Assembly: GCA_905178155.1 (NCBI GenBank)
Contig: CAJINV010000004.1
Location: 10,337,655-10,401,654 of the forward strand
Reading direction: 5' to 3'
Length of the DNA: 64,000 bases
From: Amoebophrya sp. A120
Lineage: Eukaryota > Protista > Dinoflagellata
Below the pieces are notes generated by a model, which ran no database searches, was not told the DNA's origin, and worked only from the letters and a program-made list of their open reading frames with translations. Shown here piece by piece: positions 1,377 through 58,400 of this stretch. The position numbers were made by a program, and so were the translations under genes. How positions within the stretch are numbered: the first letter of the stretch is position 1; each line of letters begins with the position of its first letter.

Positions 1377-4300
1377 TTACGCGGAGTTACAACTATCAGC
1401 CGCACCCTCTCTGTCTCCATCCACTCGCACGCCGTCGCTCCCGAGGCAGACCGGCCGACCAGACGGGCTAATCGTCAGTGCTGTGGACGCCCGGAGCGGG
1501 TCCTCGTCTTCGGGGCTGAGCGACTGTTCGTCCGCAGCAGTTTTTATTGCGGTGTCGGCGCAGAAGGGTTTATTTTCGTGTGGAGTTGTTGTAATTCTTT
1601 GTTCGGACGAGGACCGCCCGTGAGAAGGGAGATCAAATTTATTTGCCACCTTCCCTCCTGGTCCCGGCGTCTGCTCGGCAACGTCTTCGTAACGGTAACG
1701 CCCCGAGTCGTAGTTGTTGTCCTCGAAGAAGAAATCGTCTTCGAACCCGTGCGCGGCACCTCCTGGCACGACGTAATTGTGCTTGGTCTGCAGCGAATTT
1801 TCCCCTCGAACCGGTACGAAGCCATGAGCGCCGTCCCGTATGTCGTGCAGGTCTCGGTCTTCCGCCACCACCCGGGGAGGCGTGCCCGCGACGTTCTGCG
1901 GGGGTAAAACGAGTTCCGGAATGCGGCTGTTACGGGGCTGGAATTTTTTGTCGTTGAGATGAGTTCGCGACGACAAAACGGGGGAGTAATCCACACTGTC
2001 CAAAGGGGAAAAGCTTTTCGCCACTGGAGGGTCTGTGCTCAGGCTGCGCTTGCCGGTGTGAAGAGAACTAGCACCGGATTGCGCGGCCGAGCGACGCAGA
2101 GAATCGGCGATCTGTATGTAGTTTTTGCGGAAGGGAGTTGACCTATTGAGTCGGATCTCGATCTGAATCTGATCATCTGTGACACAGTATGCATGACATA
2201 TATCGTTCGCTGCGTTGCCTTAACAACTTCAGCGAGTAACTCTACAAAGAAACACTGTACTGTGAGGTAAGACGGCAGCTTCATCGGCGAACGCATTGGA
2301 GAGACACTTTGCCGCAAATCTGTCGTGCTCGTTTTGCATAGCGAGTACCGCATCTGTAGGTTGCGCGGCGCGATCGACGAAGACACAACCTGCATTGAAA
2401 AAAAGGTGTTTGTAATTCTTGCAATTGCATGCAAGAAAGGTGAATGTGGATGTGCATCACAGCAATATACAGCTAAATCTTTCTGATAAGTACTGTGACT
2501 GCAGTGTCTGAGTCTGAGAAGAGTATCGTCCTGTACCGCATCCACACTGCCTGGCACAGCTCCGCCGGCAGCTACATTTCCCGTCCCGACCGCCGCCGGC
2601 TGCAAACGACTGCTCGCAGACAGCACACCCTTTTTCGACTTTGGTACGTAGTTGCTGTAGCTGTTTTGCACGGTCTTCGTCGGTCCGCGGGAGGTCTTAT
2701 TCTTGGTGTTGCGCGTCTTGTATAGCGGCGGTGACACGTCAAGCGTGAAATCAGGCTCTGCGCTGCCCTTGAGGTCTGCGTTGCTGCCGTTGGCCTGTCT
2801 TCGTTTTTGTGTTTCGAAAAATGTACACCGTATCAAATGCCTTGCGTTCTTTCGCTGGGGAATCTATCATCGGTCATGCAGTTGCAGGGGAAATAATCAA
2901 CATAAAACGGAAAGAGCACTCCCAAGTTCGTATACATCAGTTCCGAAGGCAAACGCCGGCAGAGGAGAGGATCGCGACGGCGTCAACATGCAAGGATCCT
3001 CGACGCTCGTGGTCGAAACTCCTGCATTCAGTGTCTGTAAAGAACCCAGAAAACTGCTGTCGCACATGGAGATGCAATCCTGCTCCGGAATAATGCTCGA
3101 AGGAACAACTCCAGATTGAGATTCTTGTCTCGCAGAGTCTCCAGCCGTGTCAGGCTTGTCTATTTTCCTCGCCTCATTTGATACAGAAATGACACTGGGT
3201 GACGCAACAAGCGTCAAAATCGTCGTGTCACTGGAGGAACAGGTAGTATGGCCTGCCGGACGCCTGTGCCGGTGCGCGTGCGACGACGTACGAGCAGTCT
3301 TTTGCTTCCTTTATGAGCTGCAAAAGTATCGTACTCGTATAAATGCATTACAAATTTCCTCAGCGTGACAAATAAAATTTGTAATGCTCATTTACCTTAA
3401 GAGAAAGATTTGTAAATGCATGATTGCACTACGAGTACGATACTTTTGCACAGGATATCCTTTGTGCGACGTTGATCTCCTGCTCCCGCTTCGCCTCTGC
3501 TTCGGACGCTTCCAGCCGCTTTGTCAGGAGAGGTACTAAATTCGGGGCGGGCGGCTCCTCGTCACCAGCACAGAATTGGACAGTAATAGTCGGGGGCTCC
3601 ACCAGCGGAGCGACTTTATTGTTTTCCTGGTCTTCCTTCCTTTCCAACTCCGCCGGCTCTACTTGTGCGCCTACAACAGGTCGAACCGCCGACGCCACCG
3701 GAACATCGTCACTCATCGTGCTTGTAGAAGAAGTAGCGTCAGTTATTTGCTTCATCGGTGCCGCGCTCTTCGCAGGAGTTGGCAAGCGGACCATCTCAAG
3801 AACACGCGGCGCCGGGCTCGCCGAATCTTCACAGGATGCTTGTTCGTCCAAGGTTGGCGTTGGAGCGCCGTTGCCCACCGCCACCTGCTGCACCATGCCT
3901 TCGAGACTGTCTTCTACCGGTGCTGTAGCGCGGCTGTCATTTACAATATCCACGTGTTGAAGATGAGCGCAGAACGCGGGTAGTTCTCCTGTTTGCTCTA
4001 GTCCTGCGTCCACGGAGAGTGGCAGAGATTCCTCGTTGCAGACGATCAGATCTGGGTCGAGGGTCGCGGTGATACCATCATCAAGCTCGAGCACTTCCAG
4101 TTCCTGCGTCACTTCCGCCAGCTCCACCACGCGCGTCGTCTCGACTGGTGCGGACTCCACTTCATCACCGTCAACAGCGGCTAGTGCGACGTTCTCGCCG
4201 TCCAGAACTCTGGATCGTCGCGTTGTGGGCGCTCCTTCTACTAGCAGTAACTCCTCAACATGATCAACATCTGTATCAACAACTTCCTGGACTGTCAAGA

Positions 4301-7300
4301 CAAACTCCTGCTCCGATAAAGCTCGGGATGTGTTACTACGATCCGTCTCGAGAAGTACCATCTCGTCGGCGGAGCAACTGGTGGGCGCATGACTAATCTC
4401 CTCGACATTAATGGCCCCCTCGTGCGCCTCCGTTAGTTTTGTGTCATTCGTGCTGCCTTGCAAGCAGTTGCAGAGAGACGAATCTTCGACGAGCGCACCG
4501 TCGACGGGCGGGCTGGTGCCTGGTTTGGGAATAAAAATTGGCGTCCGCTGTAAATGCAGAGAAAAGGCGGTCTACAGAGCTCTGTATACAATTTCATTTC
4601 TTGAAGATGATGCTGCATTCCTGCGCAACAACAGAAAAGCGACATGGATGCGACTGTGGAAGGTCGTCGGGTAAGTACTTACTAAACATGTGTCTCCGGT
4701 TGATTCAATTTTGGACCCCCATACATCAAGGTTCTATACATGTGTAAGCAGCGGCAACAGCTGAGGAAGTTCCGTTGCTTTTCTTGTTCTCCGTCACCAC
4801 TTCTATTTCGCCAGCCTCCCCGGCCGCGGCCACGGGAGACAAAGCCCGGTCCTCGTTGGTTTTATTTCCTTGAGCGACAGCTCCTCCCGTAGCAGGCGGC
4901 GTGCACGGAGTCATGTCTGCTTCGTCGTCGTGCAAGAGCACCAGATCCTCGTCCGACCGGTCTAGGCTACTGCTAGTCAACTCGACGGATTGTCGACGGA
5001 TCTGCTGGTGATGCGGTTCCTCCTCCCCCTCGTCCGCGCTAGAGGAGCTGCTGCAGGAAGACTGCGGCGTGGTATACAGCAGAGCATTGTTCACCGGCGA
5101 GGAGTTGGCCACCGTGCTGGGCGTCACACGGTGATGCGACTGCGGGTCGACGAGAAGATCGGTTTCTTCAGAGCAAACACCCTTGTTCGAAGCGGATTTC
5201 ATCTCGACCAAGTCGCGTTCCTGGGCTTTGTCGTCCTCCTCTTCGCGTGGACGAGATGGAAGAACAGCTGCTGGTGAGGTCACAGTAGTAGACGCTGGGG
5301 ATTTGGTATCTGCTGACGCATCAGCACGCACCTGGTGTCTTTCCACTGATCGCGCTAGCGTGAGGCTACTTTTCTCGCCACTGGCACTGTCTGCTGCCGG
5401 CGTGCGCTCTTCATTTGTTCTACTTCCATGGTCATGATGTGCAGCTGCACCACAGTTCATCTTGCCGGCTTCCTCAGAAAGAACTTTCCTCGAACATGGT
5501 GGAGCAGCTCCTGCGGCACCTGTTCTTGCATCATCGGCTCCACCTGAAGATACTACGTCATCGTCGGGGGATACAGGTTTGTTCTCCACTTCTTTCTCCT
5601 TCTTCTTTGTGTCTGCTTTTCTCGTTGTACTTCGACTTGTGGACGGTTCATCTGCATCTTCGACGTGTTCCCCGAGCGAGATCTCTTCTTCGTCCAGTTT
5701 CTTTTTCATCATCAGAGTCGCTTTGTAGTGCTTCCGGGCGCTGTGCAGAAACGAAAAATCCGACAGCGACCCACTCGCCCTTTTCAAATCCACGTCGAAA
5801 ATTTTGTCGGTCAAGCAGTACAATAAGCGGTCCCCGAGAATGTCGATTCTTTCGATGTGGTTGCGACTCAAGACGACCGGATCCCCGTTATCCTGAGTAA
5901 AAACATCCCCACACCAGAGTCAAGATGGGGATTTTGCAACACAAACCTAGAACTTTTGGGGGTCACGCATCACAAGTCGCAGTCCGTAGTGTAGTGCAGG
6001 TTCGCAAGGCCAGCTGCATCAGAAATCCATCTGCTTATCCTGTTTACAGCATTACAAATTCCAAAACACGACTAAAAATGCCTCTCCTGGCGATGCGCAT
6101 TACAAATGTTCCTGTCATTGCAAATCTGCATGACAACTCTGGTGTGGGGACGTTTTTACTCAGGATACCCGTCGTCGCTCGAAAAGTCGTCGTCATCGAC
6201 AAAATTTTGACCCCCGCCGACCTCGTCCTGATACTTGACCATCGAGCCGTTCGTGCCGGATTGGTTTGAGGAGACAAATGACCGGTGCGTGTTCAGCTTG
6301 TTACTTTCAATCGCAGTAGAACCACTGCTATTTCTTCCATTATCAAACCCCGCCGCGTCCAGGTCCTGTAGCGCAGCGGCGCTGGAGGCATCTTCGGAGG
6401 ACGATGCTGCTGCCTGCGACTGTCGCCGAATTCCTCCGCTGTTTCTTGGATGCACAATCTGCTGCTCGCCGTAGACTTCGTTGCGAATGTAGAGGTGCGA
6501 GCCCTCTTCGTAGTGGCAAGAAGAGTACATGCAATTACCCGCCGACGTGCTGGTTTTCACCTTGGTCCCGTGCAAGTAGGCGCTGCGCGAGGGGCTCGCG
6601 GCATGCGGCGTGGAGGACTGATGTTCCACCTGCGACGGAGTTTGCTGGTTTCTCGTGGTGTCCTCATCCCCTGCGGTTGGCGATGGTTGTGGTTCTCGTA
6701 GTTCTGCAGTAACAACACCTTCCACACGATTCTCTACCTCCGGCCGGCCCAAATTTTTTGGCACTGCATCTTTCGGCTGCGGCGTATCCGGAGCGACGAC
6801 CTCGGCGAGAACGATCTTTATTTCCTTTTCGGCCCCGTTCGGACAGGATTCGGCAGAAGCAAACGCAGCGTGGTTGTTCATGTTCTTCTCTCCTGCGCGA
6901 TTCGCCTTCGGCTCTGCCGCTTCTTGCTCGGGACTCAGCAGCTGGCCCTCGTCCGGGCTCCGCAGTTCCTCGGGAGACGGAGAAAGCCCGTGCTGCGGCA
7001 CGAGGGTCATCATCTCGCCCGTGGGGCCGCGAAGGTCCGGAGAGAGCGTGCAGTAGTGATCATTTTCGTCCGCCGGCGAAACGGGCGAACACTGCCGCGG
7101 CAGGTCATGCTGCTCGGCGGCAATGTCGTCGTGCGCAAGAACCGCGGGGTTTGGTGGAACGTGGATGTGCTGGTGATCCTGTTTGAGAGATGAGAGGACC
7201 TCGCTTTGTTCCGCTTCACAGGCCGAAGGAACTGCGGGGGGTCCAATGGCATGCTGCGCATCAGGACCTCGACCTGGCGCAGTAGTTTGATGAGGTTCAT

Positions 7301-10300
7301 TGTCATTGTCTTCATCCTTGCCATCGCCCGCAAGACAAACATCTTCGCAGCCATCAGCAGTTTCAACTTTCGCGGGCCGTGCAGCAAGATCCGTGGTCAG
7401 ATCGACTACATCAGCAGCAGCTGTATCAACGTCCACCCCTTCATCTTCAAAGGTCACACGGTCTGGCGACGGCGGGGTGATTTTGATTGTATCCCAGTTT
7501 TTCCCGCCTGTCATCCCACTTCCGACCACCTTGGGCGTGGGCAGCTGCCCCCGGTCGGTATCGCTGTTCGAGTTTTCGGATTCGTGCGACCCTTCCTCCA
7601 AAGTTTCCATTCTTTGGTAGCGACCGAGTCCCGGCGCGCGGAGCCCGAGATTCTTCAAGCCCCCGTAGTCGGACCGGAAGGGGAGGAAACTAGCGGTCGA
7701 ACAGCGGGTCCAATCTAGAATTTCGCCCGGGAGGTCTTCTGGAGCAGCAGCGTCCTCGTCTGTCGTTGCGCCACCAGGCTCGGAAACATTGCAAAGAGGC
7801 GCGTCGAGCTCGGGATGATGATTGTCGCTCTTGGACTCCTGCTCTGTCACGCACACAACGTCGCAGGGCGAAGGTGTGATCTCCATCTCGGCAATAAAGC
7901 TCCTTTCGTGTGGCAACAAAACCTGCTCTTTTGCTGGATCCGTTTCTGTTTGCGGCTCCTCTCCACCCCCGTGTCCGTTAACTACATAGTCCTCGTCGAT
8001 CATCACATCACTGGCAGTTTCAGCTTTCTCAACGTCATCGACGCACGGAAATGGAACAGAAGTGGACGGTAGGACTACCTCTTTGTCCGCATCATGAATG
8101 TCGACATCCGCGCTGCTACGGGGCTGACTGTGGGTGCTAAAGTGAAAATCAAGCTCAACCCCTCCTCCCGACAACACTTGGTCCTCCGCGTAGCGAGGGG
8201 TCCGGGAAGGATTCCTGCGCAGCATCTTTCCGGTCCGGGTTATGAAGATCTTTTGTCGCGACGGTTCTGCACCAGATGCCCTCTGCCCGTCTGTCGTGCC
8301 CGCTCCTTCTTCCTCCAGCAACGTGTCTATCTGGTGTTGGTCTTCGTTAATATTTGACGTGGACTCCCGGCTGTTTCTGTTGCTACTGCTCCGCTCAACG
8401 ACTCGAGCGGAACTGCCGGTGCTGGACGAGGTAGCAGCATGGCCATCGGAGGACTGGCCGACGCTCGGTCTGCTCGAGGCGGCACTGTAACCGGTACCCG
8501 AAGAATCTTCACTGGTATTTGTTGACCTTCGACGCACCATCTTGTTGGTTCCTGAGGACGACGATCCATTCGTCGCGGCCGAAAAAGGTCGTGCCTTTAA
8601 GTCTTCCGTTGTACTGGCCGTGGCAACTACATCGACGGATGATACAGTGGCATTCCCGGGTACCTCCATAGCGTTCACGGCAGGTCGGTCTTCGTCATGC
8701 GTCTTGCTTGCCCCGAAATTATCCAGTTTCGAAGCCACTGCGACAGAAGCCGCACCGCTCTGGCTTTTGCTTTTCCGGCCGCTCCTTTTCTTCGTCTTAG
8801 AACTACGAGAAGCGCGGTGGATTTTAGTGTCCACCTGGGTACTAGTCGTGCTGTTTTCCGCCAGAGCCCCCCTGTCCTGCGGCAAACACGGCAGCGTCGC
8901 AGCGCACTTGCTTCTCGACGATTTCGCCCTGCCGTCGCTGCTACTGGACGAGCTAGAGGAGCCACCTCCAGACGAGGACGACTGTGCAAATGGGCTCTCC
9001 AGGTCCCGCACGGATTCGGAGGTGACCGAGCGCTCACTACTCGCACAGGAAGAATTCGTGTCTGCATCGATGAGCTGCACAAAACCCGTGGTAGTGGAGG
9101 CACTTATGGGGTTCTCAAACGTTACATTCTCAACTGTTACATGAATTTGTCATGCAAAAACACCATCATCATCCTCACGATCAAGAAGCTGCTCCGCGTG
9201 ACAAGTTTGCGAAGGGCTAAGCCGCGCCTAAATCTGCGCCAAACTTGTAATGCAAAAGGCGCAATCTTCCTCCTTTCACTTTTGCCAGTCTTGCATTACA
9301 AATTCATGTAACAGTTGAGAATGTAACAATTGAGAGTCCCATAGCGCTGCTGCTTTCGTTCGAGCTCGTTCCGTCCTCCTCGCCAGACGAACGGCTTGCC
9401 GCGTAGGAATTTTGCGGCGGCGTGAAACAGCGCTGCTCGTGTAGTTGTTCCTCGTCATCTACATGTTCCTCGCAGGAGGAAGCAGACGGAGGGAAGCTAC
9501 GGGCAGCTGCTTCGACATTCCCAGCAGTGAATGCGCAGGAGGTGGTACTAGTACTACTTCCGGCCGAACGGTGGTGGTAGCTTTGTTCATCGTCTCTCTT
9601 GCTTTTTCGAGGAACACCCTCCGATGGTAGCAGGGGCTGGCGTCCTTCCTTGTTATCCTCATCGCGACTCCCCGAACCAGTCGCTTGTCCGCCAGCTGTA
9701 CTCGTCCTAGCACAGCCCGTGCTACTGCCTGCGCTGCAGCTGCTCGAAGATGAACTCGACGAAGCAGACGTTTTCCCCGAGAGGCCCACCTCGCACCCCT
9801 TGTAGTGGTGCCAGGAGGAGGAGACACTTCTTGTCAGAACTACATTCTGCTTGCTTTTCTTTCGCCCGGAAACAGAGCAAAAAGTGGTTATCGGCTCCAA
9901 ATGCAGCTCCTCCGCGGATTCCATGCGGTCGTTGAAGGTCGTAGAAGAAAGCCGAAGGGGTTGCGGGTGCTTTGGAGGACCCGCTCCACGTAGTTGTTCG
10001 TGGTGGTCTTTAGTCGTGCCGGCCTCTGAAGAAAAGGGGCCACAGCCTTGCGACCGGCGCAGGGAGGTGCTGGCGCAACCTTGTTCTTGCGCGTGCCCTT
10101 GTGGTCCTGCAAACAGTTCCTGCTGGGCGGCGCTCCGAATCGACGTAGTGCAAGAACTTCTAGACGCCTGCGATGTAGTATTTGAAGACCTGTGTCGTTG
10201 CAATAGTCTTTTCTCGTCGACGATATCCAGTGGCTCTAAATCTTTCCGCGCAATCAAGAACGATTCGGTCGAGCAGTGCCGTGGCAGATGCAGGGAGCGT

Positions 10301-13300
10301 TGCTGGCGCTGTACCGCTGGAGGAGCAAGTGCAACATCTCCAAGTCCGGCTGTTTTGTTTGCTTCGATGCTCTGCTGCAAGACAAGTGCTCCACGCGGTA
10401 TCAGTTTGGAGTGCCGCAGGTTCTCGTCCGCAGATGGCTCGTGCTTGTCGTGGCGCAGTTGAGAAGAACATGCTGCTGTTGCGGCCGCTGACGATTGCAC
10501 ATGTTGAGACGCTGTCGCTTCGGCAGGACAATGATCGGTCGAAAAACGAACGACAGAGCTGGGTCTCCCTGATATCCTCGGTTCGTCGACACAACTTGCG
10601 GGATCGCTACCAATCATTCCCGGCACAGCCACCTCTACTAGTGCCGCTCTTGTCGTGCTCACGCGTGGTTCGGTGCGGCGTGAAGTTGTAGACTGGTCCA
10701 ACAGCTGCAAGCAACTCTCGTCATTATTTCCCGTTGTACCATCGTCCAGTACCTCGTCAAAGTTCTGATCGCCCATCAGCGCATCGTATTCGGCAGCAGC
10801 GCCGGCAATGTCTGCCTCTGCGTAGCGGAAGTTATTGGAGCCGCAGCGGAGTAGTGGGAACCGAATCTCGTCGTGGCCGGGCAGGTTGGTCTCATCGACA
10901 TCAAGGATATCGTCCTGCTCCTCTTCTATGTGATTGTCGTGCGCCGCAGCAAGAACGCCTGCGGCAGCAGTGCCCCCAGAAGTCTCATCGTTCGTCGGTG
11001 CTGACGTCAGTCGCGGTTCTTTCACCTGTCCTTCGATTTGTTCGTGGTCTACCAGTGCGACCTGTTGGTTCTTTTTCGGCGTGCTGCTATCGGGACCACG
11101 GAGGTCGTTGGCAGCAACTTCGTCCTCGATGAAATCCACGTTTTCCAAAGCCAGCGAGTGCTTATCAACTGTAAAAGTGTCTGGGTCTGGAAACTTGTGA
11201 TGCTGGTTGGCGTATCATGAGGCGGCCACAAGTGCTGGCTCAGCATGACAAGTTTCTGAGCTTCGAGGTGTTGCCTATTCTGCATGACAAACTGCGTTTC
11301 TGCATGAATGAAAAACGGGGCTCTTGCGTAACGTGCATGACAGACTTTGGGGTCATGCTGGCAGAGCATGACAGACCTTCCATTCTTCCAGACCTAGACA
11401 TTTTTACAATCCATAGTGCTCCAAATCATGCAAAAACTCCTCTGTCGCGGTGAGATTCACGTTGGTGATTGTGTCCATCTCGGAACAAGGTAGAACTTGT
11501 GGCACGTGGACAGCTCCTTCTGCGGTATTTTTGCTTCTGCAGCTGCTCTGCTGTTGTACGAGCGATTCTACTTGTTTGCGAGGGGGCGTCGAGTATTCAT
11601 GTTGCTGCACGTCGATAGGTGTACTAGCTCCGGGAACAACAAGAGAATTTCTCTCGGCAGGCTCCCTCAGCCCTTCGACGTGCGAATGTCCATTCCTGCT
11701 GCCCCTGTGCGACTTCGTCTTCCCTCCCGCACTAGACGCTGATGACTCGGCGGAAATCCGGCTAAGCTCCGTTTCCAGCAGAGCGATGCTGCTGTGCTCC
11801 TTATCAAATGCAAAAGTGTCTGGGTCTGCAAGGTTGGAACCTGTGATGCTATTTTCGGACTCTAAAAAAATCTGTATTGCATGACCAGCAAGAGGAGTCT
11901 AGTTTGTGCTACGCGGGGAGGGCGTTTGTCATGCGAAGTAGGCATCAGGAAGCCGTCTAAAAATCTGTGATGTTAGGCCGTGCATTACAGACAACCTGGG
12001 TCATGCAAAACATGCATGAAAAATTTCAGAATCTTCCAGACCCAGACACTTTCGCATTTGATACTCCTGTGCGTCGTGCACTTTCAACGCAAAGCTGGCG
12101 TCTTCCTGCCACAGCTCGCTCGACGGACGGAGAAACTTCGCCAAACTCGCCACGGACGCGCTGTGCAGCGGCCGCTCCGTGCTGTTGACGCTCGACCCAC
12201 AGAGGGTCGGCGATTGCTCAGGATCGCTGTTGTACGCCTGTTGCGGTGACGCAAGCATGATGTTTTTACCCGTGAAGGAGGTCGAGACGGTCGCTGGGAG
12301 GGTGACACGCTCCTTCTTCAGCTCAGGGGCGGGAACCAGGCATCTGCGGAGGATTTCGTTTTTTTATTCTTTTCATGCTGATTTTCATTTTTTTTTTTCG
12401 TGGACGTGGAATAAAGATTTTTTCGTTCGATTGTGTTTTTCGATCATGTCGACCAAAAGAATTCATGTGAGTCGTAAAGACGACCCAAATTAATACAGCA
12501 AACTATCGTCCTTTTCATTGCGAAAAGTCTCGATCATATCGCGATCCAAAACGGCGCCGGGGGCTCTTCTGGGCGCCGGCGGTAGTAGCTGCCCATCAAG
12601 TAGCTCTGCTTCCGAAACCGGACCACTTTCTCCGCAACGGCGCGATTTTGGTGCCACAATTATCGGAGTCCTCATCGCGCTCCTTCTCGCTTTAATTCTC
12701 GTCCCGTGCTTGGGCACCCCGCATGCATCGCTTCCGTGGTCCTCTTCCTCTCCGGTGTTGTACTTATCCAGCATGGCCTCCATGTACTTGACAAACATGG
12801 ATGCCTGGTTCGCCAGCTGAGAGTCAATCTTCAACAGCATTTCCCTCACCCCATCGTCTTCGATCGACGTTGTACTGGCGGAGGCTCCTGCACAACTCGC
12901 ACTGCTGCTCGAGGAGGTGGAAGCGCAGCTGCTACGGTTCGCTGTACAACTGAAGGTGCTCTTTCTGTTCGACGTGAGAAACTGGGACTGCGATGTAGTT
13001 GTTGACTGATTGTTCTTAGAAGTAGTACTGATGTATCCCGATGTTGAAGACCCTGCTCGCGAGAAGAGGGCACTACTCCGCTGCCCTTGTCCGTCGTGTT
13101 CAAAATCTTCACTTCGATCGTCCGGCGACAGGTTATCCAAACAACTACGGTTGTAGGCCAACATCGTGTGATGCTTGTTCGGCACCCTCGCATCGGTGGG
13201 ATCAGCGGCCAGCACCCTGGCAGCTCTTTGTCGAAGATTTTTGCGCACTGACATCCGCGTGGGACTGAGAGCGGGGTCGTCCCCATCATGGCAGGTGGTG

Positions 13301-43400: not shown

Positions 43401-46400
43401 TCGCCACCTGGCTCATATTTGAGGTTCCGTTCCCACTCGCGGTTGCGTTCCCAGTCGCTGCAGCGGACGGCTGCCCTTGCGAAAACTGCAAGAAACCCAC
43501 GCCCTGTGGTGATCCTGCGATGCGATAGGGTACCGCGTCTGCATCCGGGTTTCCCTGGAGGTCCTTTTCGGATTCATCTTCTATTTGTTCTTCTTGTTCG
43601 TTTGCTTGATCTTGGCTATATGGCGCCACACCGTCTTCAGGTCTTTCTACTTGCCCCTCTTCCCACTCTTCCCCATCTCCACCATCATAAGCATCTGCAT
43701 CTCCACCTGTTCTTTCCTCTACTGCGCGATTCGCCAATAACGTCGCTCCCCCGCTCGGCGCAGCGGTACTCCACGAGGTCAACGCGTTGCTCATCGCAGC
43801 CACATTCGCCGCCATCAGGTCCGCCGCGCTCGGCGTCGTGGTGGTGGTCGTGCTGGTCGTTTCCGTCTCTTCCGGATCATAGGGTGACCACACTGCTTCT
43901 GTTATCGTGAGAAAAAAGTGTTTCACTGTAAGGATTTTGCCAGTTTTGCATCATAAGTGCGTTACACATGACAAAGGAAACTTGCCATGGGAGGTTCCTA
44001 AGGGAAAACAGACCTGAAAACCCAATGTCTTGCAGGTGTGGCAAGACAAATGCATCTTTGTTCCATCCTATGCATCACAGGTTTACAGTGAAACAGTTTT
44101 TTCTTGCGATATCTGTAGTACTAGAAGTGGTTGTTGTGTTTGACTCGTTCACGTAGGAAGAAGTTATGCATTGCAAAAATGTCTCGGTCTGGCAGATTGC
44201 TGAGGTTTGTGATGCTGTGTCTGCTTGACACAGAAGGTGTGCCATGCAAGGCCTAGCATCGCAGGTTTCGAGACGGTTTTCCAATGCTTAATCCGCATGA
44301 CAAACACCTTCTTTTGGCGACAGGAAAAGGAGCTCCCTTTGCTGTCTAAGCATGACAGATTCTTGTGTGATCCAAGTATGCATCACAAGTTCGCATCCTT
44401 CCAGACCCAGACATTTTTGCATTTGATAGAAATGATGGTCGTGTTATCCGAGGATGTTTCATTCCCCTTATCCAAGAAAAAAACGTTGTTAGTGTAAATT
44501 TGTGATGCGCAACATGCAAATCGATTGCGCCTGTCAAGCTGTGCCTGCATTATAGGTTCCATTACAGGGCGTTTTCACGTACAATCTGAGCATGACAGGT
44601 TTTTGCTGTCATGTGAGAGATATTTGTCATGCTAATCCTCCAAGAAAGTTACACCTACAATCTTTTTTTCTTGGATATCCCTCCCCCGGCTGGTAGTACC
44701 CCGCGGTTTCCACTTTGGTGATGTACGAGATCTGGTTCGCGGCGAGCAGGCTCTGCTTCTGCACGTCTGCCGTCCGCTTTCCCACGAACACGCCGTTGTC
44801 GAGACAAGGGAAGCCGAGCATCATGTTCACGTCGGGAAAGAAACCGAAATCCGCGTTGCCCTCCGCGGCGGACGCGAGAATGGCGTCGTCGGCGAACAAC
44901 GTGCACTTTCCGTGGTCGTACCGTTCCGCAGCTCGCACGTACTTCACGAACCCGCAGTTGGTGAGCCAGGCCTCACTGCCCTCCGCACATCGTTTACTGC
45001 AATCTTCGAAAGAGCCGACGTTGTCAAATTCCGCGATCACCAACCGTGACTCCGGTAATTTCGAGTCCAGCATCACAGTGACGCCGTGGAGTCTCGGACA
45101 GCCGACCGTGCAGGGCAGACCGGACACGGAAAACGTACCACTGTCGTCGTTTTCATCGTCTGTTGAGGCGGTGGTGGCAACTGGTGATGCGCCACTTGAT
45201 GTAGAAGTTGCCGCAGTTGTGATATTCGGCGTCGGGGGGTCCTCGGTGAACTTGTTCAGCAGTTTGCAGGTTCCTTTGAACTTCAAAGGCACTCGGGGTT
45301 GCATTAGCACCGCCTTCCAGTCCGAACTAGGTACTTTTTGCCTTTTCCACGTGAAAGCCACGCAGCCCTTCTGGACGGCGCAAAGCGCGGAACAGGCGTC
45401 GGGGGAGTGGACGAATCGTAGTGTCTTGCCCATGCGCTCCGCCATCTGAAGTTCCATGTAGTCTTTGTTCACCTCAGTAAAGCAGCCGTCGTATTTTCCG
45501 GTACAGGGTAAACCAGCGGTAGTCCCGACAGACGCGACAATTTGCGGCAAGGCGTCGACAATCTTCTCCGCGCGAGCCGACAACAGTGGGTTGCTGGTCT
45601 CCTCCCGACCAAGCTGCAAACGGCAGAGACGGTAGTCGCTACGGGCGGGGGAATCGCCGTAGGTGAACATGCGACAACCGTGGGGGAAACGCTTGCCGCA
45701 GAGGTCCTGAGGAGTGATTTTTGGATCTTGTGCTGCTCTCTTTACATGATACGGGAAGGACTTCCTCCTGTCGCTGCCTATCCAGCTATACATCGCTAGC
45801 ATATCTCAACAAGATTAGACAAGGAAAATCGCAGAAGTTCATCAAAAATCGAGCACCCCCCTGTCCGGGGCTCCCGGGACATATAGTTGATTTGTGTGGG
45901 CCCCAACCATTTCGCATTTCCCCCCTGCGGAGCCCGCCCCGCCATGCGCTGCCGCTGGCATGTGTGTCGTTTTGAGTTCTCACGCCTGCGCATGTACGAG
46001 CCGAAGCGATCCCAGCACTTGCTTAACAGTCTTGCTCCGATTCAAAGACGCGCGTCTATGAGAAAACAGCTCCACAGGGTTCGAAGGTGGTGCGCGTTTA
46101 CAATGAGTCGCATTGTTCCGAAAACGTTGCCGGCCCCCATTTCTTGTCCTGTCGCAGCGCGGAGCCCTTACAGTTTGCCACCTGAATCGCTCGCGCAACC
46201 CGAATAATGTAGAGCAACGCCGCCACATTCACCAGCAGAACCACCCAAAGCGCCAGGGGCAAACCAGCAAGCGCCCAGCCCGTTTCCCCGCCCCGGCCCG
46301 GCTGTCGAAAGCGCCGGGCAAAGGCGTGCCCGAAAGCGCCGCGGCCCTGTCGGAAATCGCCGGCAGGGGCGACCGCGATACCAGTGGCGTGGCCCGATGC

Positions 46401-49400: not shown

Positions 49401-52400
49401 GCTGCTGCCCTTGTCTTCTTGCAAGACAAATGTGATTTGTGGCCTCAAATCAGCAACACAAATTTGCGGAAGCATACCTTTTCAATATGGGGAGGGGGGA
49501 TTTTCCTTCCGATACTTCGGACTCGTTCTTCAGCATCTTCCACTGCGGCGCGCACCTCGCGCGCTCGATCCGCTTGTACACGCCGAGGTCCCCGCGGGAA
49601 GTCTTTTCCGCGATGGTCATCAGCTCGTCGGGCGGTCTGTCCGGATCCGTTTCCTTCACGATCTGCTTGCAGCCTCCCACCGGGTACAGCCGGCACATCG
49701 CGGGCGAGACGAACTCCATCCGCCGGCACAGAGTTTGGATCTGACACAGCGTCGCACACTGGGTCGGGGTGGTGTATCGGCCGTCGTAGAACTGATACGC
49801 CTCCGACCGGTCGGCGCACCTGGTTTTCGCCTCCGAACTCAAGGGCACCATCAACACCTCCTTTGCGCCCGCCTTCGGGCACTGTGGGTTCGCGAGCGCG
49901 GGCGGGAAGGTCTGTTGGTGGATGCCGCCGGCCGGCGTCACTTCCACCTCGTCGTCTTCGTCGGGAGCCGGAGTTATTGTACTATTATCGACAGTACTAC
50001 TGTTCGACGACGCGTCGGGCGTCTGAAACTGCTGGGCTCTTCTCGCCGCGCCGAAAAGCAGCTCGTTTCCGGTATTTGCAATCGTTCTACTTGACAGACG
50101 CTTCGACGCCTCTCGCAAACTGTCCCGCATCAGGTTCTTCAAATGGGCCCTCTCACTGTCAACGGTCATTTGGAGCAGGGCCAGGCGCGTCTTTTTCTGA
50201 GGCTGTTGCCCTGCTCCTGGCCTCCTGTGAAACTCCACGACCTCCTCCCGCCGTTCGCCTATCTGCAACGTGATGATGTCGTCTTTGTCTAGCCGCTCGC
50301 TGTCCATTTCCGGTGCGGTGAGCTTCGTCCCGTCGATGGGCGAGAGTGCGCGTGGCGTCGGGAGCCAGAGGAAATCGGAACCCGGACGCAGAAACTTCCC
50401 CCCGTCCGCAAACCCGGCTTATCCTGAGTAAAAACGTACCCACACCATAGTCAAGATGGGGAATCGGCTAGACAAATCCACAAGTTTTGGCTGTTTCGCA
50501 TGACAAATTTGGACGCGTAGTGTAGTGCTGTTTGAGATAGTTCAGTAGCATTACAGATCTAGTCTCTCATGCTGCTTGTAGCATGACAAATTTCAAAACA
50601 CCATTAGAAAATGCTTCTCATGGGGCTCCGCATGAGAAACATTTTAAGCATGCAGATTTGCATGACAACTATGGTGTGGGTACGTTTTTACTCAGGATAC
50701 GGCTTGCCGGCACATCATGTCTGCGGCGTTGTCGTCCGCTTCGTTCCCACAGACACTGCCCCAAAACGCGCGGCTCAGATCGCCCGAGCGCCGCTGGAAC
50801 CGGGCGATTTGCGCCTCCCCGATACTGCTGTCTTGGAACGCCCCCGCGCCCGCGTTGTTTTGGCCGTGCGCGTTGGCCGACGCGTCCGGGAGGAAGTTGG
50901 TCGTGCTCGCGAGCCGCACCGACATCGAGTGCTCCGTGCGGCACTCCATGCGAAGGGTTTCGACCTCTTCGCGGAGCTCCTTCCGTTTGTTCACGGGGAA
51001 AAGCTGGAACCCGTTGATGCACCTAACGCAGTGCACCGCGCCGTGTTCTGGGCACTTCTCCCCCGTCGCGGCGAAGCCTGTCATGGTGGTACTCCCGGTG
51101 CTGGGGTCACTGTAGCTCGGGCAGGCGCACTGCTTCGGCGTGCAGGTTTTGGACACCAGGTTGTAGAAAAAGCCTGTTTCGCACGTCGTCGAGTTCGTTG
51201 TCACGTTGCTCGTCATCACCGGCGCCGCGCACCGCTCTTCAAACTCGGGCAAGTTAGAGCAGAGCGTGCCGACGGCGGGCTTGCCGAATTCGCACGTGCA
51301 CAAGCCCTCGACCTTGCAGGTTTTGGCGTTTGGCCCCAAGCCCTTCTCCCACGCAGAGGGGCCGGCAAAGGGACCGATGGAGGCAAAAAGCCGACACTGC
51401 TTCGCGGTCGCCTCGTAATCAAAAGCGACGCAAGAATCCGCGGCCGCGTCACAGGCAGCGGCGCAGGCAACGCCGTTTTGCTGTAATGTTGAATGATTGG
51501 AGTATAAATTGCATGATGTCGGTAATACTTCACAAACACAAACACGTGTGAAGCTTGATGACGTATCGAAAAACAAAAATTGTACAGAAAGGAAAACTAC
51601 AACAGAAGGAAAACTAAAATCCCCTACTACTTACCTCTGTCGACGTGGCCCCCGGTGCTGTAAACGCGGGTCCGCAGTCCTCCGTTGCGCACCGGTCGGC
51701 CACCATCGTTCCGACTTCGCACTCGTACGCTCGCGCGCTGCTGTCGTCCTTCTGCAAACCACCCGGATCGCCCAAAATCTGCACGTCCGAGAGCATGGCG
51801 TCCCCCTTTCCGTTGTTCACGACCGAGACTTTCAAGCCCCGCAGGTTGTTGCAGCTGATCACATCGACCACCTCCGGACTGGTCGCGCTAGCTGGTGAGA
51901 TCGCGTTTGAGATTTCTTCACTTGCTCGCGTCTTGCACTCTTGCTCGTCGACTTCGACGGAAAAATCGCCCGTGTCAGACAGTTCCGCTGCCGTGAACCG
52001 CACCTGCACACTCGCTACCCGCACCGGCTTCGGAAACGTCATACCCCACTTGCCGCCGACGGGTAACTGCACCTGCGTCGCCCGGTCGTCGTCCACCGCG
52101 GACGGCTTGCCCGCGGGGATGTCGGCGCCCGAGACCGATTCGACGCCGGGGGTCAAGCGGTAGCCGTCGATTAAGGGTGCGCGCTTCACCGCACGGTACA
52201 ATCCGTAGGACATCGGCTGGTCGTCGGTTAAAACAGCATCCGGCTCATACGCCGGCTCCACGGTTCTCGACACCAACTCACACGTCCCTTGCTCGAACGG
52301 CTTTTTGCTCCTCGGGTCGCGGGAAATCAAAAAGTAATCGCACCACCGATTGTTCAAGGCGCAGTGGGCCGCACAGGCCTTCGACGCCTCGTACCCGCTC

Positions 52401-55400
52401 GTGTCGCTGATCGCCGCGCGGACCAGATTTTGAAACCGGCTCTCGTCCCCGAGGCGAAACACGTACTTTCCCGCGGTCAGTGCCAAGTCACCACTAGCGG
52501 ACTTCTCCTTCATCACTAAAGGCAGCCCGCAGTGCACCTTCCTCCCCGCCCAGGGGCCATCCGCGCGGCGGCAAGTGCCGGCGACGCCGCCGTGGCAGAA
52601 GAGGTCCGTGCAGTCTGCGTCGGACACGGCGGCCGCGTACTCAATGCTCCCATCTGGGCACAGACACATGCCGCCGTTGCGATTCGGCGTCGCGGCCTGC
52701 TCCGCGACGTTTCCGCCGTTCAATATCGCGATCCTGTCGTCCAGCTTGAGCAGCCCGGTGTATCAAATGCAAAAATGTCTGGGTCTGGAAGAATGCAACT
52801 TGTCATGCTGAATCTGAAGCTTGCAAAAATTTGTATTGCATGATTTCCAAAAGATGTCCACTTTTGACCAGTTTGACAGGGAGTTTCTCATGCAGGATAG
52901 GCATGATGGACACCTCACAGCGATTATCATGCTAGGTGCTGCATTCCAGGCCCCGTGGGTCATGGAAAAACTGCATCACAAATCTTGCATTCTTCCAGAC
53001 CAAGTCCAAGACATTGTTGCATTTGATACGGTGTCGGCATTCACCACGTTCTCCTCCAATTTGACTTCGTAAACGGACACCCGCCGCCCCGGCACCCCCG
53101 CCGGCGTGCCGCAGGGGAATCTGGGGTCCTCGCCCTTCGCCGTGCAGGGGCCGCACTGGGAATCCGGCTTTCGCAAGCTGTCCATCGAGTCCGGCAGGTA
53201 AAACAAGCTGCAGAAACAGTCACTCGCCCCAACGGCGAAGTAATGGGTCGGCGCCGGTCCGACATCCGCACCGGTCGCGTTCGCGGTCAGATTCTTTGCT
53301 TCCCGATCGGCGTTTTCCGCGGTGATCAACGTCTGCTTCGCGGCAATCAAACACCACTCCCGGCACTCCGCGACACTCGCACTCTCCCCCACCGGGTAGC
53401 TGGTCGCGCGCGTCCAGGGGGTCGTTTCCGGGTTGGCGAGCAAGTCCGAGTCGAAGCAGCCCATGTGCTTCTGCGCGGGTTCGATACCCAAAGTCCCTCC
53501 TGCTTTCGTGGTGACGATATCCGCCTTCATGCAGAGCACAAAGTCGTCGAATCTCGTTGAGGTCGCGTAGGAACTGGCTTGCAAAATGCAGTGTCTTTTG
53601 TTCACGCTGTACTCGAAGGACTCGCAATCTTTGTCCCGCTTTTCACATTCCGCGGTGCACTCCTCGATGCCGACGTTCTGGATCGTGTTTGCGTCGTTCG
53701 TGACCAAGTCGATGTGCTGGAAGAACCCGAGCTTCCGTCTGTACCCGGTGGGGCAAATCAAGTCCGCCGTCCGGGAAAATCTCGGGACGAGGGCGGGGAA
53801 TTCGGGTGTGCTCCCCGCAAGTTTCGCGGCCCCCTCCCGCCAAAGTGGCATGGGCGCGCTCAGCAACGCTTTCTCGAAAAGATCCTTGATCGGCACGGAC
53901 TCCGGGGTCAAGCTCTGCGGCGTCGAAATCCGCAAAAACGCTGCGATCCCGCCCGGATCAGATAAAGTCGCGGGCACTGCGCGCACGGTCGCTGCGGAGT
54001 AGAAATCGCAATTCCCGCCGATCTTGTTGTACACAAAACCACCGCACGTCGGTATTAAAAGGAAAAGTCCCCCCTCCCCATATCAAAACGAAACTTCTGA
54101 CGCTGGATTTGAGTGCACAAATCAGCTTTGTACTGCAGGAAAGCATTGCAGTCAGGCCCCCAGGCTAGGTAGGGGCGCACGCGTCTAGTTGTTCAGCATG
54201 GCAAGCGGCTCCCCTTTAGGCCCAACAGCATGACAAATCGCCTCCATAATGGGGCGGAAGCTTCTGCCCTTGCCTTCTTGCAAGACAAATGTGATTTGTG
54301 ACCTCAAATCAGCAACACAAATTTTCGGAAACATGCCTTTTCAATATGGGGAGGGGGGATTTTTCCTCTCGATAGTCGGCACCGCGTCGTCGCACAGACT
54401 GCGACACATCGTGGAGGAGAGTCGCACCGTTATCATTTGTAAAAACGTCCCCACCCCATAGTTGTCACGCAATTCTGCATGCCAAAAAAGTTTCTCATGC
54501 GGAGCCCGATGAGAAGCATTTGCTGTTCGTGTTTTGGAATTTGTGATGCTGGAATCAGCATGCTATGCTAGATCTGTGATGCTTCTGAACCTAGCAAAAA
54601 AGGATTACACTACGAGGACAAACTTGTCATGCCAAACAACCAAAGCTGGTTGATTTGCCTAGCAGATTTCCCCTCTTGACTCTGGTGTGGGGACGTTTTT
54701 ACTCAGGATAACCGTTTCCGTCGTGTCGTCCGTTGCCGTGCTGTTCACCATGTTCCCGCTCTCCCCGATCCGGACCAGTTGCCGCTCCGTGACGATCGCG
54801 AAATCGGGGAGGATTTTGCCCTCCAGCACCATGCCACTCGCAACCCGAACGTACCCGTCTGTGTAGAGTGCGGTGGGGAGCAACGACCGGTAATGCGCAT
54901 ACGTGCCCGGGGTCGTTTTCGACGGAGCTAACGTCGCGGTCAAAATGCACCCCTCGGTCAACGACGAAGGGTCGACGAGCACCCCCGCGCACCAGTTCGT
55001 CGCCAAGCACTGCTCGGAGCAAGTGTCCGCTGTGAAGTTCCCGGGAACCGTTTGCTTCACAGACGGTTGGTCGGCGGTGCCGGTCAAGTCCGCCCCGTCC
55101 GTCCACAGTTCTTCGGTCAAAACCCGGTTAAAGCTCGTGCTGTACACGGCAATCCGATCGGTCGCGCCGCAGTACTCGGCGTCCAGGTTGCACCCTTCGA
55201 TATCGTACAGCCCTTTGCTGCACTCGACATCGTCCACTTTGGTGAGTTCCGCGGTGGCATTTTTGTCGCCGCACCTGCAGGAAACCGCGTCGCCACCGTA
55301 GAGCCCGAAGAAGGGAAAGGAGCCGCACATGCCGGAGCAGGTTTCCTGGGTCAGTTTGGAAACCAGCACCATCGCCGGGAAATTCGCGGCTTGCACCGTT

Positions 55401-58400
55401 TTATGGACTGCAAAAGTATCGTGCTCGTATAAATGCATTACAAATTTCCTCAGCATGAGAAATAAAATTTGTAATGCTGATTTACCTTAACAAAGGGATT
55501 TGTAATGCATGATATCCATGCGAGTACGATACTTTTGCACAGGATACGTTTGAAAGGAGGACTTCGCGGGTTTGCTGTAGTCCGGATTTTTCTCCGACTG
55601 GGTGGTCGTCGGGCCTATGCATTGCAAAAGTATCGTACTAGTGGAAATAGCATTACAAATTTTTCCAGAAGCAAAAATGGAATTTCTAATGCTGAATTCG
55701 CTAGGAACCCAGTAGATCTGTCATGCATGACTGCAATCCATACGAGTACGATACTTTTGCACAGGATAGGGCCCATCGCGTAGCAACCCAGCAGTTCTGC
55801 TTGCTTTTTCACCGCGGTGACGACAGGGGCTTGGTCTGACTGTGATTTGCTGGCTTGTTCCTCGTCTGCGAATTCACTCTCCAGCAATGCCGAATCCGTT
55901 GTTGTATCCGGTCGGGTACCACTAGCACTGCCACTTTCACCTTCCTCCTCCGATCCAAACCAAGACTTTCGCGAACTTTCAAACAGCGTCACAGCAGGCG
56001 GGGCATAATTGGCAGTAGCACCACCACCAGCAGGCTCTTCTTGTCCTTCCAGTGGCGTGGAGTCGGACAAGGCGAAGACAAAAACTCGGACCGGCTCAAA
56101 GACCGCGCCAGAGGAGGACTCTTTCCCCGACGCGACGGAAGACAACCCGACCCCGCTACTCGACTCGGGGAACGAACAGGCTTTCGGATATGGCGTTCTC
56201 AAATGTTACATTCTCAACTGTTACATGGATTTGTAATGCAAGAACAGCAACAGTGAAAGTGGCAACGTTGCAACTTTCGCATCACAGATTTTCCACAGAG
56301 TATCATGGTGTTTAGCCCTTCGAAAATTTGTCATGCTAAGCACCTTGATCAAGTGCAGGGCAATTATGTCAATTTTGCATGACAAATCCATGTAACAGTT
56401 GAGAATGTAACGTTTGAGAATCCCATATCGGATCGATACCACTTTGAAACCGTCCCAGCCTCACCTGCTGGTACTGCTTGGTGTCCGTCACAAATTCGCC
56501 GTTGAAAAAGTGCACGCCTTTGTCCTCATCCGTGGTGCACAGAACTTCCCCCTTCTCCGCATTTTTGCTCGCGGTCGGGAAACTTTTCCCGCCGCTGTGC
56601 AGCCAGTTCACCGCAGTCGGCACGACGGACTTCTTCACATTTTCGATGCAAGCCGCACTGTCCACGAAGTAGTCGCCGACGTCGCAAGGATCGGCCGTTT
56701 GCCTGTCCGTTTGCTTAGACGTGGCACTTCTACTACTTTTCTGGGCAAAAATCGCCTGTTGCTGTGCGGCTTTCTGTTTCGCGGCTAGCGTTTGGTCGTT
56801 GTTTTTCAAGCTGATCTCCCGGCCACTAGACGTGTCGGTCAGCAAATCCCGCAGGGACTTCCCTTGATCCTCGCTACGGAGGAACAACAGCGGGCCAAGC
56901 TTCCCGTTCTGCTCGACCTGCAGTGCCTTGATCGCAAAGTTGTATCCTGGATGGATTTTCGATCTTTTTCCAATCGTTTTCGGGCCGTACTCGTCCCACG
57001 CAGCACCGGCGTAGCGGAAGTCCTTTTCGTCATCCAAGATCTCCAGCGCCAGGTGCGGCCCTTGCGGCTGCACGAAGACCTGCACGGGGTGAAACCGGCT
57101 ATCGAACTGCTTCTTGTCCGCCTGGAAATCCGCCACCCCGGATGCGATCGACTGCAAGCCCACGCCCTCGCCGGACCGCGGCATCAAAGAGAGTTTATCA
57201 TTAGATTGACCAGTAGAAGAGGATGTTGTAGGTAGGTTCTGCAAAGCTGTACCGGTAGCTTGCTGCGTCTGGGAGTAGACTGTGTTGCCAAGGACGGTGG
57301 TAGGGATTTGGAAGTGATTCATCTTCGAAGTAGTCCCCTTTATTTCCTCCTGTTCCAACAGCGATACCACCGTCTGTGTCTGTTTCGTCGGCAGAAGACC
57401 TGCTTGTTGCGCTAGATCCCCTAGTTCGCTTCTCCATAACCCGATCCGCATTTTATTTTCCGTTGTGTACCCGTTGAAAACCAATCTGTCCAGGGGCGGC
57501 GCGTGCCTAACATCCGGGGTTTGCGCGAAGGCGTAAGGTGCGCCGGTCATTTGGTCCACTTGGATAGTAGAGTACACGTTGAACACGTCTGCGGTCGGGA
57601 CCGAAAGTTTTCCGGCAGACACCTCCCCGGCCATGAACCCGTATCAACTGCAACAGTGTCTGGGTCTGGAAGATTGCGAGACTTCTCATGCTAGTCTAGT
57701 ATGACTCTGCACTCTGTATTGCGTGGCCACCAAGAGGTCCTCTTGCCTATCATGCAAAAGCGCAGTTTCTCATGCGAAATACGCAGCACAGAAACACGAA
57801 AAAACTTGTCGTGCTTGGCGGCGCATTACAGAGCACTTTATTGCTCACGGACTTGCATCACAAGTTTTCAGACCCAGACATATTTGCACTCCATAACCCG
57901 TTTGTTTTCACCACGTTCCCGTTCAAAGCCACGTTTCCTAGGGGTGCTTGCACTAACTCGGACAGCGATTTGGAGGCGACAGACCGCGCCCCGCCCGGGG
58001 AGGTCGGTTTTTGCTTCTGGTCCTTCTTCAAATCGAAACTGACGGTGTTTGCGTTCATTGAGAGAATCACCGTAGACGCGGGCTTGAAATAAGCGTCTGT
58101 GACGAATATGACTTGCAAAAATGTCTGGGTCTGGAAGATTGATAAAACTTGTCATGCTAAAACCAAATCATGCAAAAATCTGTGCTGCATGACTGCCAAA
58201 AGCTGTCCTCTTTCGATCAAGTTGGGTGAGAGTTTCTCATGCAGGAGAGGCATGACAGAGACCTCACAGACTCTGTCATGCTAGGTCCTGCATTCCAAAC
58301 CTCATGGGGCATGGAGAATATGCATGAGCAGTTTGCATTCTTCCAGACCCAGACAGATTTGCATTTGATAACGAAGTTGCCACTGCCAAAGTCCGTCGCC

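Follow-up and report, generated by a model that had tools for sequence, protein, structure and literature searches.

Introner elements of the dinoflagellate Amoebophrya sp. A120 were described by Farhat et al. (2021; PMC7789003) as having inverted repeats that consist of TAT, seven less-conserved bases and at least three A, and direct repeats of 3-5 nt across the junctions; they are hairpin-forming, lack GT-AG ends, have a mean length of ~240 nt and fall into many families per genome. The A120 families are listed at 150-305 bp by Gozashti et al. (PMC12130899), where the introners of Micromonas, Aureococcus and free-living dinoflagellates are likewise miniature transposons that create introns on insertion but, unlike the A120 elements, carry or co-opt ordinary splice sites. 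A stretch of 64,000 nt of the A120 genome (GenBank assembly GCA_905178155.1, contig CAJINV010000004.1; positions 10,337,655 to 10,401,654), referred to here as the window, was found to contain 30 such elements, and all of their families share an internal nine-letter word, GCATBACAR. Judged from sequence, the arrays formed by this word have a probability of about one half of being double-stranded DNA docking sites for a putative transposase or DNA-binding partner that mobilises all of the families.

Nonconventional introns of euglenids, a different lineage, also lack GT-AG ends, their ends can pair to join exons and some are derived from transposons; we know of no internal word shared among them. 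Short repeated words do occur in the hAT transposon Hermes, whose transposase binds short subterminal repeats of both orientations through its BED domains, exact phasing to the terminal inverted repeat (TIR) reportedly being crucial (PMC10368747).

The window elements correspond to the published non-canonical introners of A120, as the terminal pattern, the direct repeats and absence from RNA at non-GT-AG boundaries were all found in them (PMC7789003). In its main text and one supplement, that account covers the terminal inverted and direct repeats, and a shared internal motif was not found there: the main text contains neither GCAT nor ACAA, and GCATGACA, TGTCATGC, GCATTACA and the phrase 'internal motif' are absent from the supplement text, the figures, including the logos of Fig. 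S25, lying outside that search. An internal word common to families is not mentioned in the portions of text and dataset rows drawn from PMC12130899, and in a full-text literature search, where 38 papers contain two or more of four motif 9-mers, the 20 matches listed look like primers, short hairpin RNAs or unrelated motifs. The elements are thus already published, while the shared word, its longer site, its geometry and its constraint appear to be new, no printed description having been found.

A word shared by all element families

To identify the elements, inverted ends bounded by TA and flanked by direct repeats were sought over lengths of up to 1,100 nt, and the candidates were curated to a set of 30 (145-993 nt). 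All begin with TAT and end with ATA, except one with a mutated first base (18961, CAT), and the terminal pattern TAT-N7-AAA(A) is common to all. In families A and D the ends read TAT, seven bases and AAAAGT, with AAAAAC in family B and TCAAAC (3 A) in family C. The flanking 5-nt direct repeats are identical in 23/30, match at 4 of 5 positions in 5/30 and at 3 of 5 in 2/30. The elements are miniature TIR transposons with 5-bp target-site duplications, and were grouped by their ends into families A (13 copies + one decayed), B (3), C (3), D (5), E (3) and G (3).

The window was scanned on both strands for GCATBACAR, in which GCAT is followed by B (not A), ACA and R (A or G). This gave 91 matches, against 3.07 +/- 1.76 (maximum 8) expected from 100 dinucleotide-preserving shuffles, and 83 of them lie within the 30 elements (8,381 nt), where 500 dinucleotide shuffles of the elements predict 0.97 +/- 0.98 (maximum 5). 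The remaining 8 are spread over 54,930 nt outside the elements, giving densities of ~9.9/kb inside and 0.15/kb outside. At least one exact copy is present in 29/30 elements, in all six TIR families, the sole element without one being the decayed copy at 30915-31208 (0 exact, 3 weaker sites), and the 91 matches are split between 50 on the plus strand and 41 on the minus strand, the strand of the window genes. The original prediction that the motif is repeated in both orientations in every introner family is borne out by these counts, the word being far rarer outside the elements and well above a shuffled background, and every example word it gave is among the listed window matches. A de novo check of 8-mers led to the same sequence: among the 8-mers found in every one of the six families, those with the strongest enrichment in elements are fragments of the motif, with 41 occurrences of GCATGACA inside the window elements and 5 outside.

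Alignment of the 91 sites revealed information beyond the nine letters. The initial G is preceded by W, and R is followed by a further R (58 A, 25 G), T (68/91) and two pyrimidine-rich positions, so that the nine letters form the core of a longer site of 13-14 nt, W GCAT B ACA R R T Y Y. Among 98 GCATNACA words, the middle letter is G in 46, C in 25, T in 25 and A in only 2. A position weight matrix (PWM) built from the 91 sites, with sites called at >=10 bits and numbered in element coordinates, detected 131 sites inside elements and 24 outside (15.6 vs 0.44 per kb), or ~4 per element.

GCATGAGAA, which departs from the word by a single letter (G for C at position 7), was seen 10 times in window elements, at fixed places in several families (e.g. 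11802-12063, 50420-50699 and 55402-55546), and may be a weaker or second class of site.

The same element families were found in an independent assembly. Metagenome contigs were scanned with a three-site pattern, which identified at least 128 loci; among the matches listed, 83 loci belong to one assembly (contig names JACKZZ01...), in which matches to window elements have 77-94% identity over the element length only. As the matches end at element length, no fetched locus is orthologous to the window. These 83 listed loci contain 168 TAT...ATA elements, of which 70 overlap the search pattern and 98 do not. The 98 elements, referred to as bystanders, were thus not selected for the motif, and 93 of them hold at least one exact copy (238 matches in 24,472 nt). 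Pieces of the motif are again the most widely shared interior 8-mers (GCATGACA in 70/98, GCATCACA in 53/98 and GCATTACA in 44/98), and the one-letter variant GCATGAGA is present in 44/98. The other 45 listed loci were judged by eye to be unrelated short repeats, tandem or interspersed, whose fit to the pattern is trivial, and were set aside; the same pattern gave 2 loci in viral contigs, both tandem repeats.

Constraint and geometry of the sites

Sequence constraint was examined in 192 elements of up to 450 nt, clustered at >=78% identity over >=80% of length. Thirteen clusters of at least four members (140 elements) were retained, and 52 elements in 45 smaller clusters were dropped. Divergence was counted as substitutions relative to the cluster consensus, a singleton being a private change:

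Seven fixed letters: all substitutions 3.1% (149/4,745), singletons 2.1%
Letter R9: all 7.0%, singletons 3.7%
Middle letter: all 15.9%, singletons 4.0%
Flank positions 10-13: all 13.1%, singletons 3.7%
Terminal 16 nt: all 9.7%, singletons 2.6%
Rest of TIR: all 8.7%, singletons 3.1%
Other interior: all 12.9% (1,793/13,877), singletons 3.8%

The seven fixed letters are the best-kept and slowest-evolving positions of the elements, ahead of the inverted repeats, and the middle letter is free. For all substitutions, the odds ratio of fixed letters to interior is 0.22, and a comparison restricted to bystanders gives 4.6% vs 14.0%. For singletons, which, given the small sample, also cover subfamily differences that escaped sampling, the odds ratio is 0.54, and in bystanders the values are 3.25% vs 4.8% (p=0.0016).

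In a blastn comparison of the 30 elements (word size 7, E<=1e-3), the only matches between families were a module of 43-46 nt common to D and E and a single 27-nt match between A and B, indicating that the families cannot be aligned end to end; such an alignment would have spoken for common descent of the motif. The original description of families with unrelated TIRs and interiors therefore holds for end-to-end alignment, but the TIRs are not wholly unrelated, as all share the published TAT-N7-AAA(A).

The position of the sites is regular. In the window, sites in the same orientation are 30-33 nt apart (families A, B, D, E and G), and sites in opposite orientation are 16-17 nt (A, B, D), 34 nt (D, E) or 47-49 nt (A-E) apart. 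In 96 bystanders of up to 450 nt, 145/275 neighbour distances fall at 16-18, 30-34 or 47-50 nt, where random placement of sites puts 21% (maximum 27% in 300 trials). When 396 ends from the window, bystanders and selected elements were pooled, forming 61 TIR types by greedy clustering at 72%, a site was present within the first 110 nt in 384. The first site is in minus orientation in 253 ends, pointing its ACA half at the terminus, with peaks at 31-32 nt (88 ends) and 39-43 nt (112 ends), and in plus orientation, facing the opposite way, in 131, with clusters at 33-36, 42-48 and 78 nt. As copies of one family are not independent, these end, spacing and site counts overstate the number of separate events; the offsets from termini and between sites are nevertheless fixed across many TIR types.

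These features bear on whether the word was passively inherited from one ancestral element made of ~16- or 31-nt repeat units, and is now the slowest-decaying remnant, with no present function. The terminal pattern, the first-site offset and the 31-nt spacing common to all families, together with the 43-46-nt module common to D and E, are in keeping with such an origin. However, decay without selection cannot yield 3.1% at seven letters beside 15.9% at the middle letter and 13.1% in the flanks, the families are otherwise unalignable, and the word is still exact in 93/98 bystanders, making an explanation by ancestry alone very unlikely. The low divergence of the fixed letters relative to the interior (12.9%), the fixed offsets and the lack of alignability instead favour the original proposal of a recognition site, as far as sequence can indicate one.

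Three other repeats in the window lack the motif. The region 20000-20560 consists of dense GGAGAGG-type words followed by their complement, with many overlapping inverted repeats; a further repeat family at 63592-63970 has inverted arms of 36-88 nt (76-92% complementary) around a short palindrome and is without TAT...ATA ends; and a G+C-rich inverted repeat at 30015-30488 has 63-nt arms (92% complementary) 348 nt apart.

Removal from RNA and orientation of the sites

The elements are listed below with their direct repeats, the number of exact copies of the word, the PWM sites with their strand and, where one was found, the RNA joint.

3312-3457: family D, 146 nt; direct repeat TCCTT; 2 exact; sites 34+, 52+, 68-
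5889-6167: family B, 279 nt; CCCGT; 4 exact; six sites, all plus (48, 79, 128, 161, 209, 240); excision needed for a 2,194-aa minus-strand frame
9105-9343: family C, 239 nt; GCACT/GCGCT (4 of 5); 3 exact; 43-, 92+, 141-, 189+
11163-11415: family A, 253 nt; GTGCT; 5 exact; 33-, 81+, 120+, 173+, 204+
11802-12063: family A, 262 nt; CTCCT; 3 exact; 40-, 71-, 125-, 164-, 181+, 213+
17666-17928: family A, 263 nt; degraded repeat (3 of 5); 2 exact; 41-, 72-, 126-, 165-, 214+
18735-18889: family D, 155 nt; CTCCG; 3 exact; 43+, 61+, 77-, 108-
18961-19212: family A, 252 nt, first base mutated (CAT for TAT); TTGCC; 3 exact; 41-, 72-, 125-, 164-, 212+
28145-28383: family C, first and last ~30 bases and flanking repeats identical to those of the copy at 9105; 3 exact; 43-, 92+, 141-, 189+
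30915-31208: decayed A-like element, 294 nt; 3 of 5 repeat positions alike; junction without an open frame; 0 exact; weaker sites 43-, 178-, 241+
38450-38665: family E, 216 nt; TCCTC; 2 exact; 51+, 85-; RNA joint 38444>38666
39117-39378: family A, 262 nt; GTCCG; 4 exact; 42-, 74-, 91+, 184+, 215+; RNA joint 39111>39379
39428-39738: family G, 311 nt; ACAGG; 5 exact; 44-, 76-, 128-, 160-, 228+, 260+; RNA joint 39422>39739
41248-41729: long D-like element, 482 nt; CGTGA; 4 exact; 46+, 77+, 93-, 422-, 440-; RNA joint 41242>41730
41771-42031: family A, 261 nt; CAGCC; 2 exact; 42-, 91+, 130+, 183+, 214+; RNA joint 41764>42031
42310-43302: long A-type element, 993 nt; CCCCC/TCCCC; sites near both ends only (4+, 41-, 72-, 89+, 947+); RNA joint 42305>43304
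43903-44111: family E, 209 nt; TCTGT; only 1 exact (170+), still skipped; RNA joint 43897>44112
44165-44428: family A, 264 nt; repeat 4 of 5; 4 exact; 43-, 92+, 131+, 186+, 216+; RNA joint 44158>44428
44469-44677: E-like element, 209 nt; repeat 4 of 5; 3 exact; 32-, 79+, 122+, 156-; RNA joint 44464>44679
48360-48622: family A, 263 nt; CGCCA; 2 exact; 80+, 119+, 184+, 215+; RNA joint 48354>48623
49191-49514: family G, 324 nt; CTTCG; 1 exact; 43-, 76-, 179+, 231+, 263+; RNA joint 49185>49515
50420-50699: family B, 280 nt; CGGCT; 4 exact; five sites, all plus, so that the minus-strand transcript holds the reverse complement only; RNA joint 50414>50700
52761-53028: family A, 268 nt; CGGTG; 2 exact; 40-, 71-, 125-, 213+
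54053-54374: family G, 322 nt; GTCGG; 1 exact; 76-, 176+, 228+, 260+
54431-54710: family B in inverted orientation, 280 nt; ACCGT; 3 exact; four sites, all minus, so that the transcript holds the forward form only; excision needed for a 5,129-aa frame
55402-55546: family D, 145 nt; CGTTT; 3 exact; 34+, 52+, 68-, 99-
55616-55768: family D, 153 nt; GGGCC; 2 exact; 35+, 69-, 103-
56189-56427: family C, 239 nt; TCGGA; 4 exact; 43-, 91+, 140-, 189+
57642-57895: family A, 254 nt; ACCCG; 2 exact; 42-, 126-, 165-, 182+, 214+
58107-58370: family A, 264 nt; ACGAA; 3 exact; 43-, 74-, 128-, 144+, 167-, 184+

At least 12 of the 20 elements in 38400-58390 are skipped, at non-GT-AG boundaries, in contigs of two public runs (X3 and X4), and each RNA joint removes the element together with 5 bases, i.e. 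one copy of the direct repeat. The run label is a guess ('RNA?'), and the status of the contigs as RNA rests on the absence from them of two introns (45706-47759 and 51481-51634) whose ends, CT..AC, read GT-AG on the minus strand, an absence which indicates that the contigs are spliced RNA and that the genes are on the minus strand. When the 30 elements, each with one repeat copy, and the two GT-AG introns were excised in silico, minus-strand frames of 5,129 aa (38045-61738) and 2,194 aa (4729-12363) were opened; for elements in 52600-58400, removal rests on this restoration of the frame.

The loss of an element with exactly one duplicate is also the outcome of precise DNA excision. Programmed DNA elimination occurs in ciliates, and its occurrence in transcribed nuclei would be the extreme form of a role for the word in binding another host factor, such as a chromatin or silencing protein or a domesticated nuclease. 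Such a factor would leave the same strand-blind, sequence-specific signature of fixed geometry as a transposase, but we know of no candidate protein. Elimination at the DNA level is countered by the absence of the two GT-AG introns from the element-free contigs, which marks these as spliced RNA, and by the read depth of element sequence in the same RNA runs. A host factor of this kind is thus considered distinctly improbable.

The original prediction further held that the motif may be the signal that marks the elements for removal, and in this respect it was not supported. The coding strand was assigned in 71 of 183 assessable elements as the only strand open across the repaired junction. These 71 elements carry 165 sense and 161 antisense sites, so that orientation relative to the coding strand is random, and the 38 elements with one-sided arrays (difference >=3) are divided equally into 19 sense-rich and 19 antisense-rich. 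The sense bias expected of a spliceosomal intronic cis element, such as a branch site or splicing enhancer, was therefore not found. In family B, every window site is in one orientation per copy. The transcript of the copy at 50420 holds the antisense form only, yet the element is skipped in RNA, while that of the copy at 54431 holds the sense form only, and this element must be removed to obtain the 5,129-aa frame. Neither orientation thus appears to be required in the transcript, the second half of this argument resting on frames and not on RNA.

If the site acted in the pre-mRNA, recognised by an RNA-binding protein or base-paired to a small nuclear RNA (snRNA), for example as a branch site or as the anchor of a ruler at a set distance from the base of the hairpin, it could nonetheless mark the elements for non-canonical removal. 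All 12 elements listed as skipped in RNA hold at least one site, and the two GT-AG introns seen in RNA are without an exact copy. The 31-43 nt that separate the first site from the junctions are typical of branch sites, and a U-N-A-Y core, its N being the free letter, is present in either orientation; the reverse complement, UGU-N-AU, has what we take to be a loose likeness to Pumilio-type elements. Singleton depletion at the fixed letters is also at least as strong as in the TIRs. Against this stand the lack of strand bias, including the family B copies, and the presence of ~10 sense-only and ~10 antisense-only elements (counted by eye), all in frames restored by their removal. The element at 43903 is skipped with a single site, motif letters are barely more paired than the rest in predicted folds, and, because first sites face the terminus either way (253 minus, 131 plus), a branch-site role cannot be general. 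On balance, a signal read in RNA is rather doubtful. The particular form in which the word would be the cis signal of a new route of RNA excision, spliceosome-independent or heavily modified, a factor docking on the array and cutting at a measured distance from it, at the foot of the terminal hairpin, to remove the element and one duplicate in either orientation, is unlikely.

Folding was also considered, since inverted copies of the word can pair and might serve only to build the hairpins that join intron ends. Many inverted site pairs lie 16-17, 34 or 47-49 nt apart, and in families A, C and G the first sites are located in the long TIR stem. In minimum-free-energy folds of the transcribed strand, 554/720 motif letters are paired (77%) compared with 4,654/6,668 others (70%). 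However, a stem needs complementarity and not one sequence in unrelated families, and conservation is lacking in the flank letters that would form part of these stems. Across 30 pairs of sites embedded in the TIRs, the middle letters agree in 14/30, with 12.5 expected, so that the covariation expected of a stem-forming repeat is missing; close inverted neighbours often differ at the middle letter, and all family B sites are in one orientation. In the terminal 55-nt arms, G:U and A:C mismatches on the transcribed strand number 209 and 246 (p=0.09), or 70 and 70 in the window only, giving no hint of selection on the RNA, although this is a weak test as elements insert in either orientation. It is therefore highly improbable that the word is a structural module and nothing else.

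Several further features of the locus were recorded. The two family C copies at 9105-9343 and 28145-28383, 19,040 nt apart, agree in their flanking repeats (GCACT/GCGCT) and in their site layout, suggesting that a local segment was duplicated; only 58% of positions agree over 3,238 nt around the two copies, so the duplication would be short. A further RNA-contig joint, 42018>42309, starts within the right end of the A element 41771-42031, lands one base ahead of the A element that follows, has no shared bases, and is probably the result of a contig jumping between two similar TIRs and not a real splice. In the raw RNA runs X9 and X10, which bear the same species label as the best-matching runs, 2 and 37 reads matched 38400-58390, all partial, 95-99% alike and without joints; these reads probably come from a different strain. 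The 2,054-nt GT-AG intron 45706-47759 includes a perfect 933-nt inverted repeat with 1 nt between its arms (45815-47681), centred on a run of 689 N (46404-47092), which has the look of either a large palindrome or an artefact of assembly or scaffolding. No convincing open reading frame was found inside the 993-nt element at 42310.

PAN domains (PF00024, E=1.3e-9 and 1.2e-5) are encoded by minus-strand exons of the 5,129-aa frame (44678-45703 and 58220-61738), and no Pfam family was found in the other large exons that were tested. This agrees with a published comment that the introns are preferentially located in poorly conserved genes. A protein search with a 691-aa frame at 33666-35738 and an Rfam scan of the window gave no match.

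A candidate docking array on duplex DNA

As the constraint is sequence-specific with a free central base, strand-blind and not driven by pairing, it points to a protein that reads two short half-sites on duplex nucleic acid. If the arrays are indeed docking sites for a transposase or its partner, the protein would contact each site on duplex DNA via the half-sites GCAT and ACA, with no contact to the base between. Several protomers bound along the array, in fixed register with TAT-N7-AAAA, could then assemble both ends for cleavage and 5-bp staggered integration, by analogy with the subterminal repeats of hAT elements such as Hermes. Families would keep their termini and sites because only copies with both still transpose, the DNA between sites being free to diverge until the families were unalignable, and removal from RNA would depend on the terminal hairpin and the direct repeat and not on the motif. 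A single transposition machinery is plausible, since all families share the TAT...ATA termini and the 5-bp duplication.

The subterminal repeats of Hermes, as described in PMC10368747, resemble the A120 sites in being a short word present in many copies and both orientations, with some palindromic pairs and with positions fixed relative to the TIR and to each other, and the Hermes word is bound on duplex DNA by the DNA-binding domain of the transposase. However, Hermes has a 4-nt word and an 8-bp duplication (PMC10368747), whereas in A120 a 9-nt core with a free centre goes with a 5-bp duplication; also unlike Hermes, the A120 array fills the whole miniature element, and the A120 elements are also introns. 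A short word in both orientations inside the ends, at positions fixed to the TIR, is found in the A120 elements, and on a DNA-docking role the motif array would belong with the known subterminal binding-site arrays of TIR transposons.

Several observations weigh against a docking array. No transposase turned up in the window or the fetched loci, where no systematic search was made. Farhat et al. report putative transposases in strain A25 only and not in A120, and argue against transposase-mediated mobilisation (PMC7789003), and the entries for A120 families in Gozashti et al. are classed only as 'TIR DNA' of superfamily 'Unknown' (PMC12130899). The array is not confined to the ends but fills the whole 150-320-nt interior, and so does not look subterminal, and the spacings of 31-32, 39, 48-49 and 52-54 nt fit no single helical period. 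The Fisher p-values overstate significance, as copies of one family share sites. Finally, a transposase site need not persist after insertion, and the depletion of singletons at the fixed letters therefore hints at a function in place, e.g. in RNA removal.

Two questions stand out for the introners of Amoebophrya, namely what moves them, as no transposase has been found in A120, and by what route they leave the RNA when their ends are not GT-AG and no U1 snRNA has been detected in the cell. A word of 9-13 nt that almost all copies of all families contain, and whose conservation exceeds that of the inverted repeats, offers a concrete bait for the factor behind this intron system. Its fixed offsets (31-32 or 39-43 nt from the tip and ~31 nt between direct neighbours) constrain models of the end complex, and a simple PWM could locate unclassified copies and autonomous partners genome-wide.

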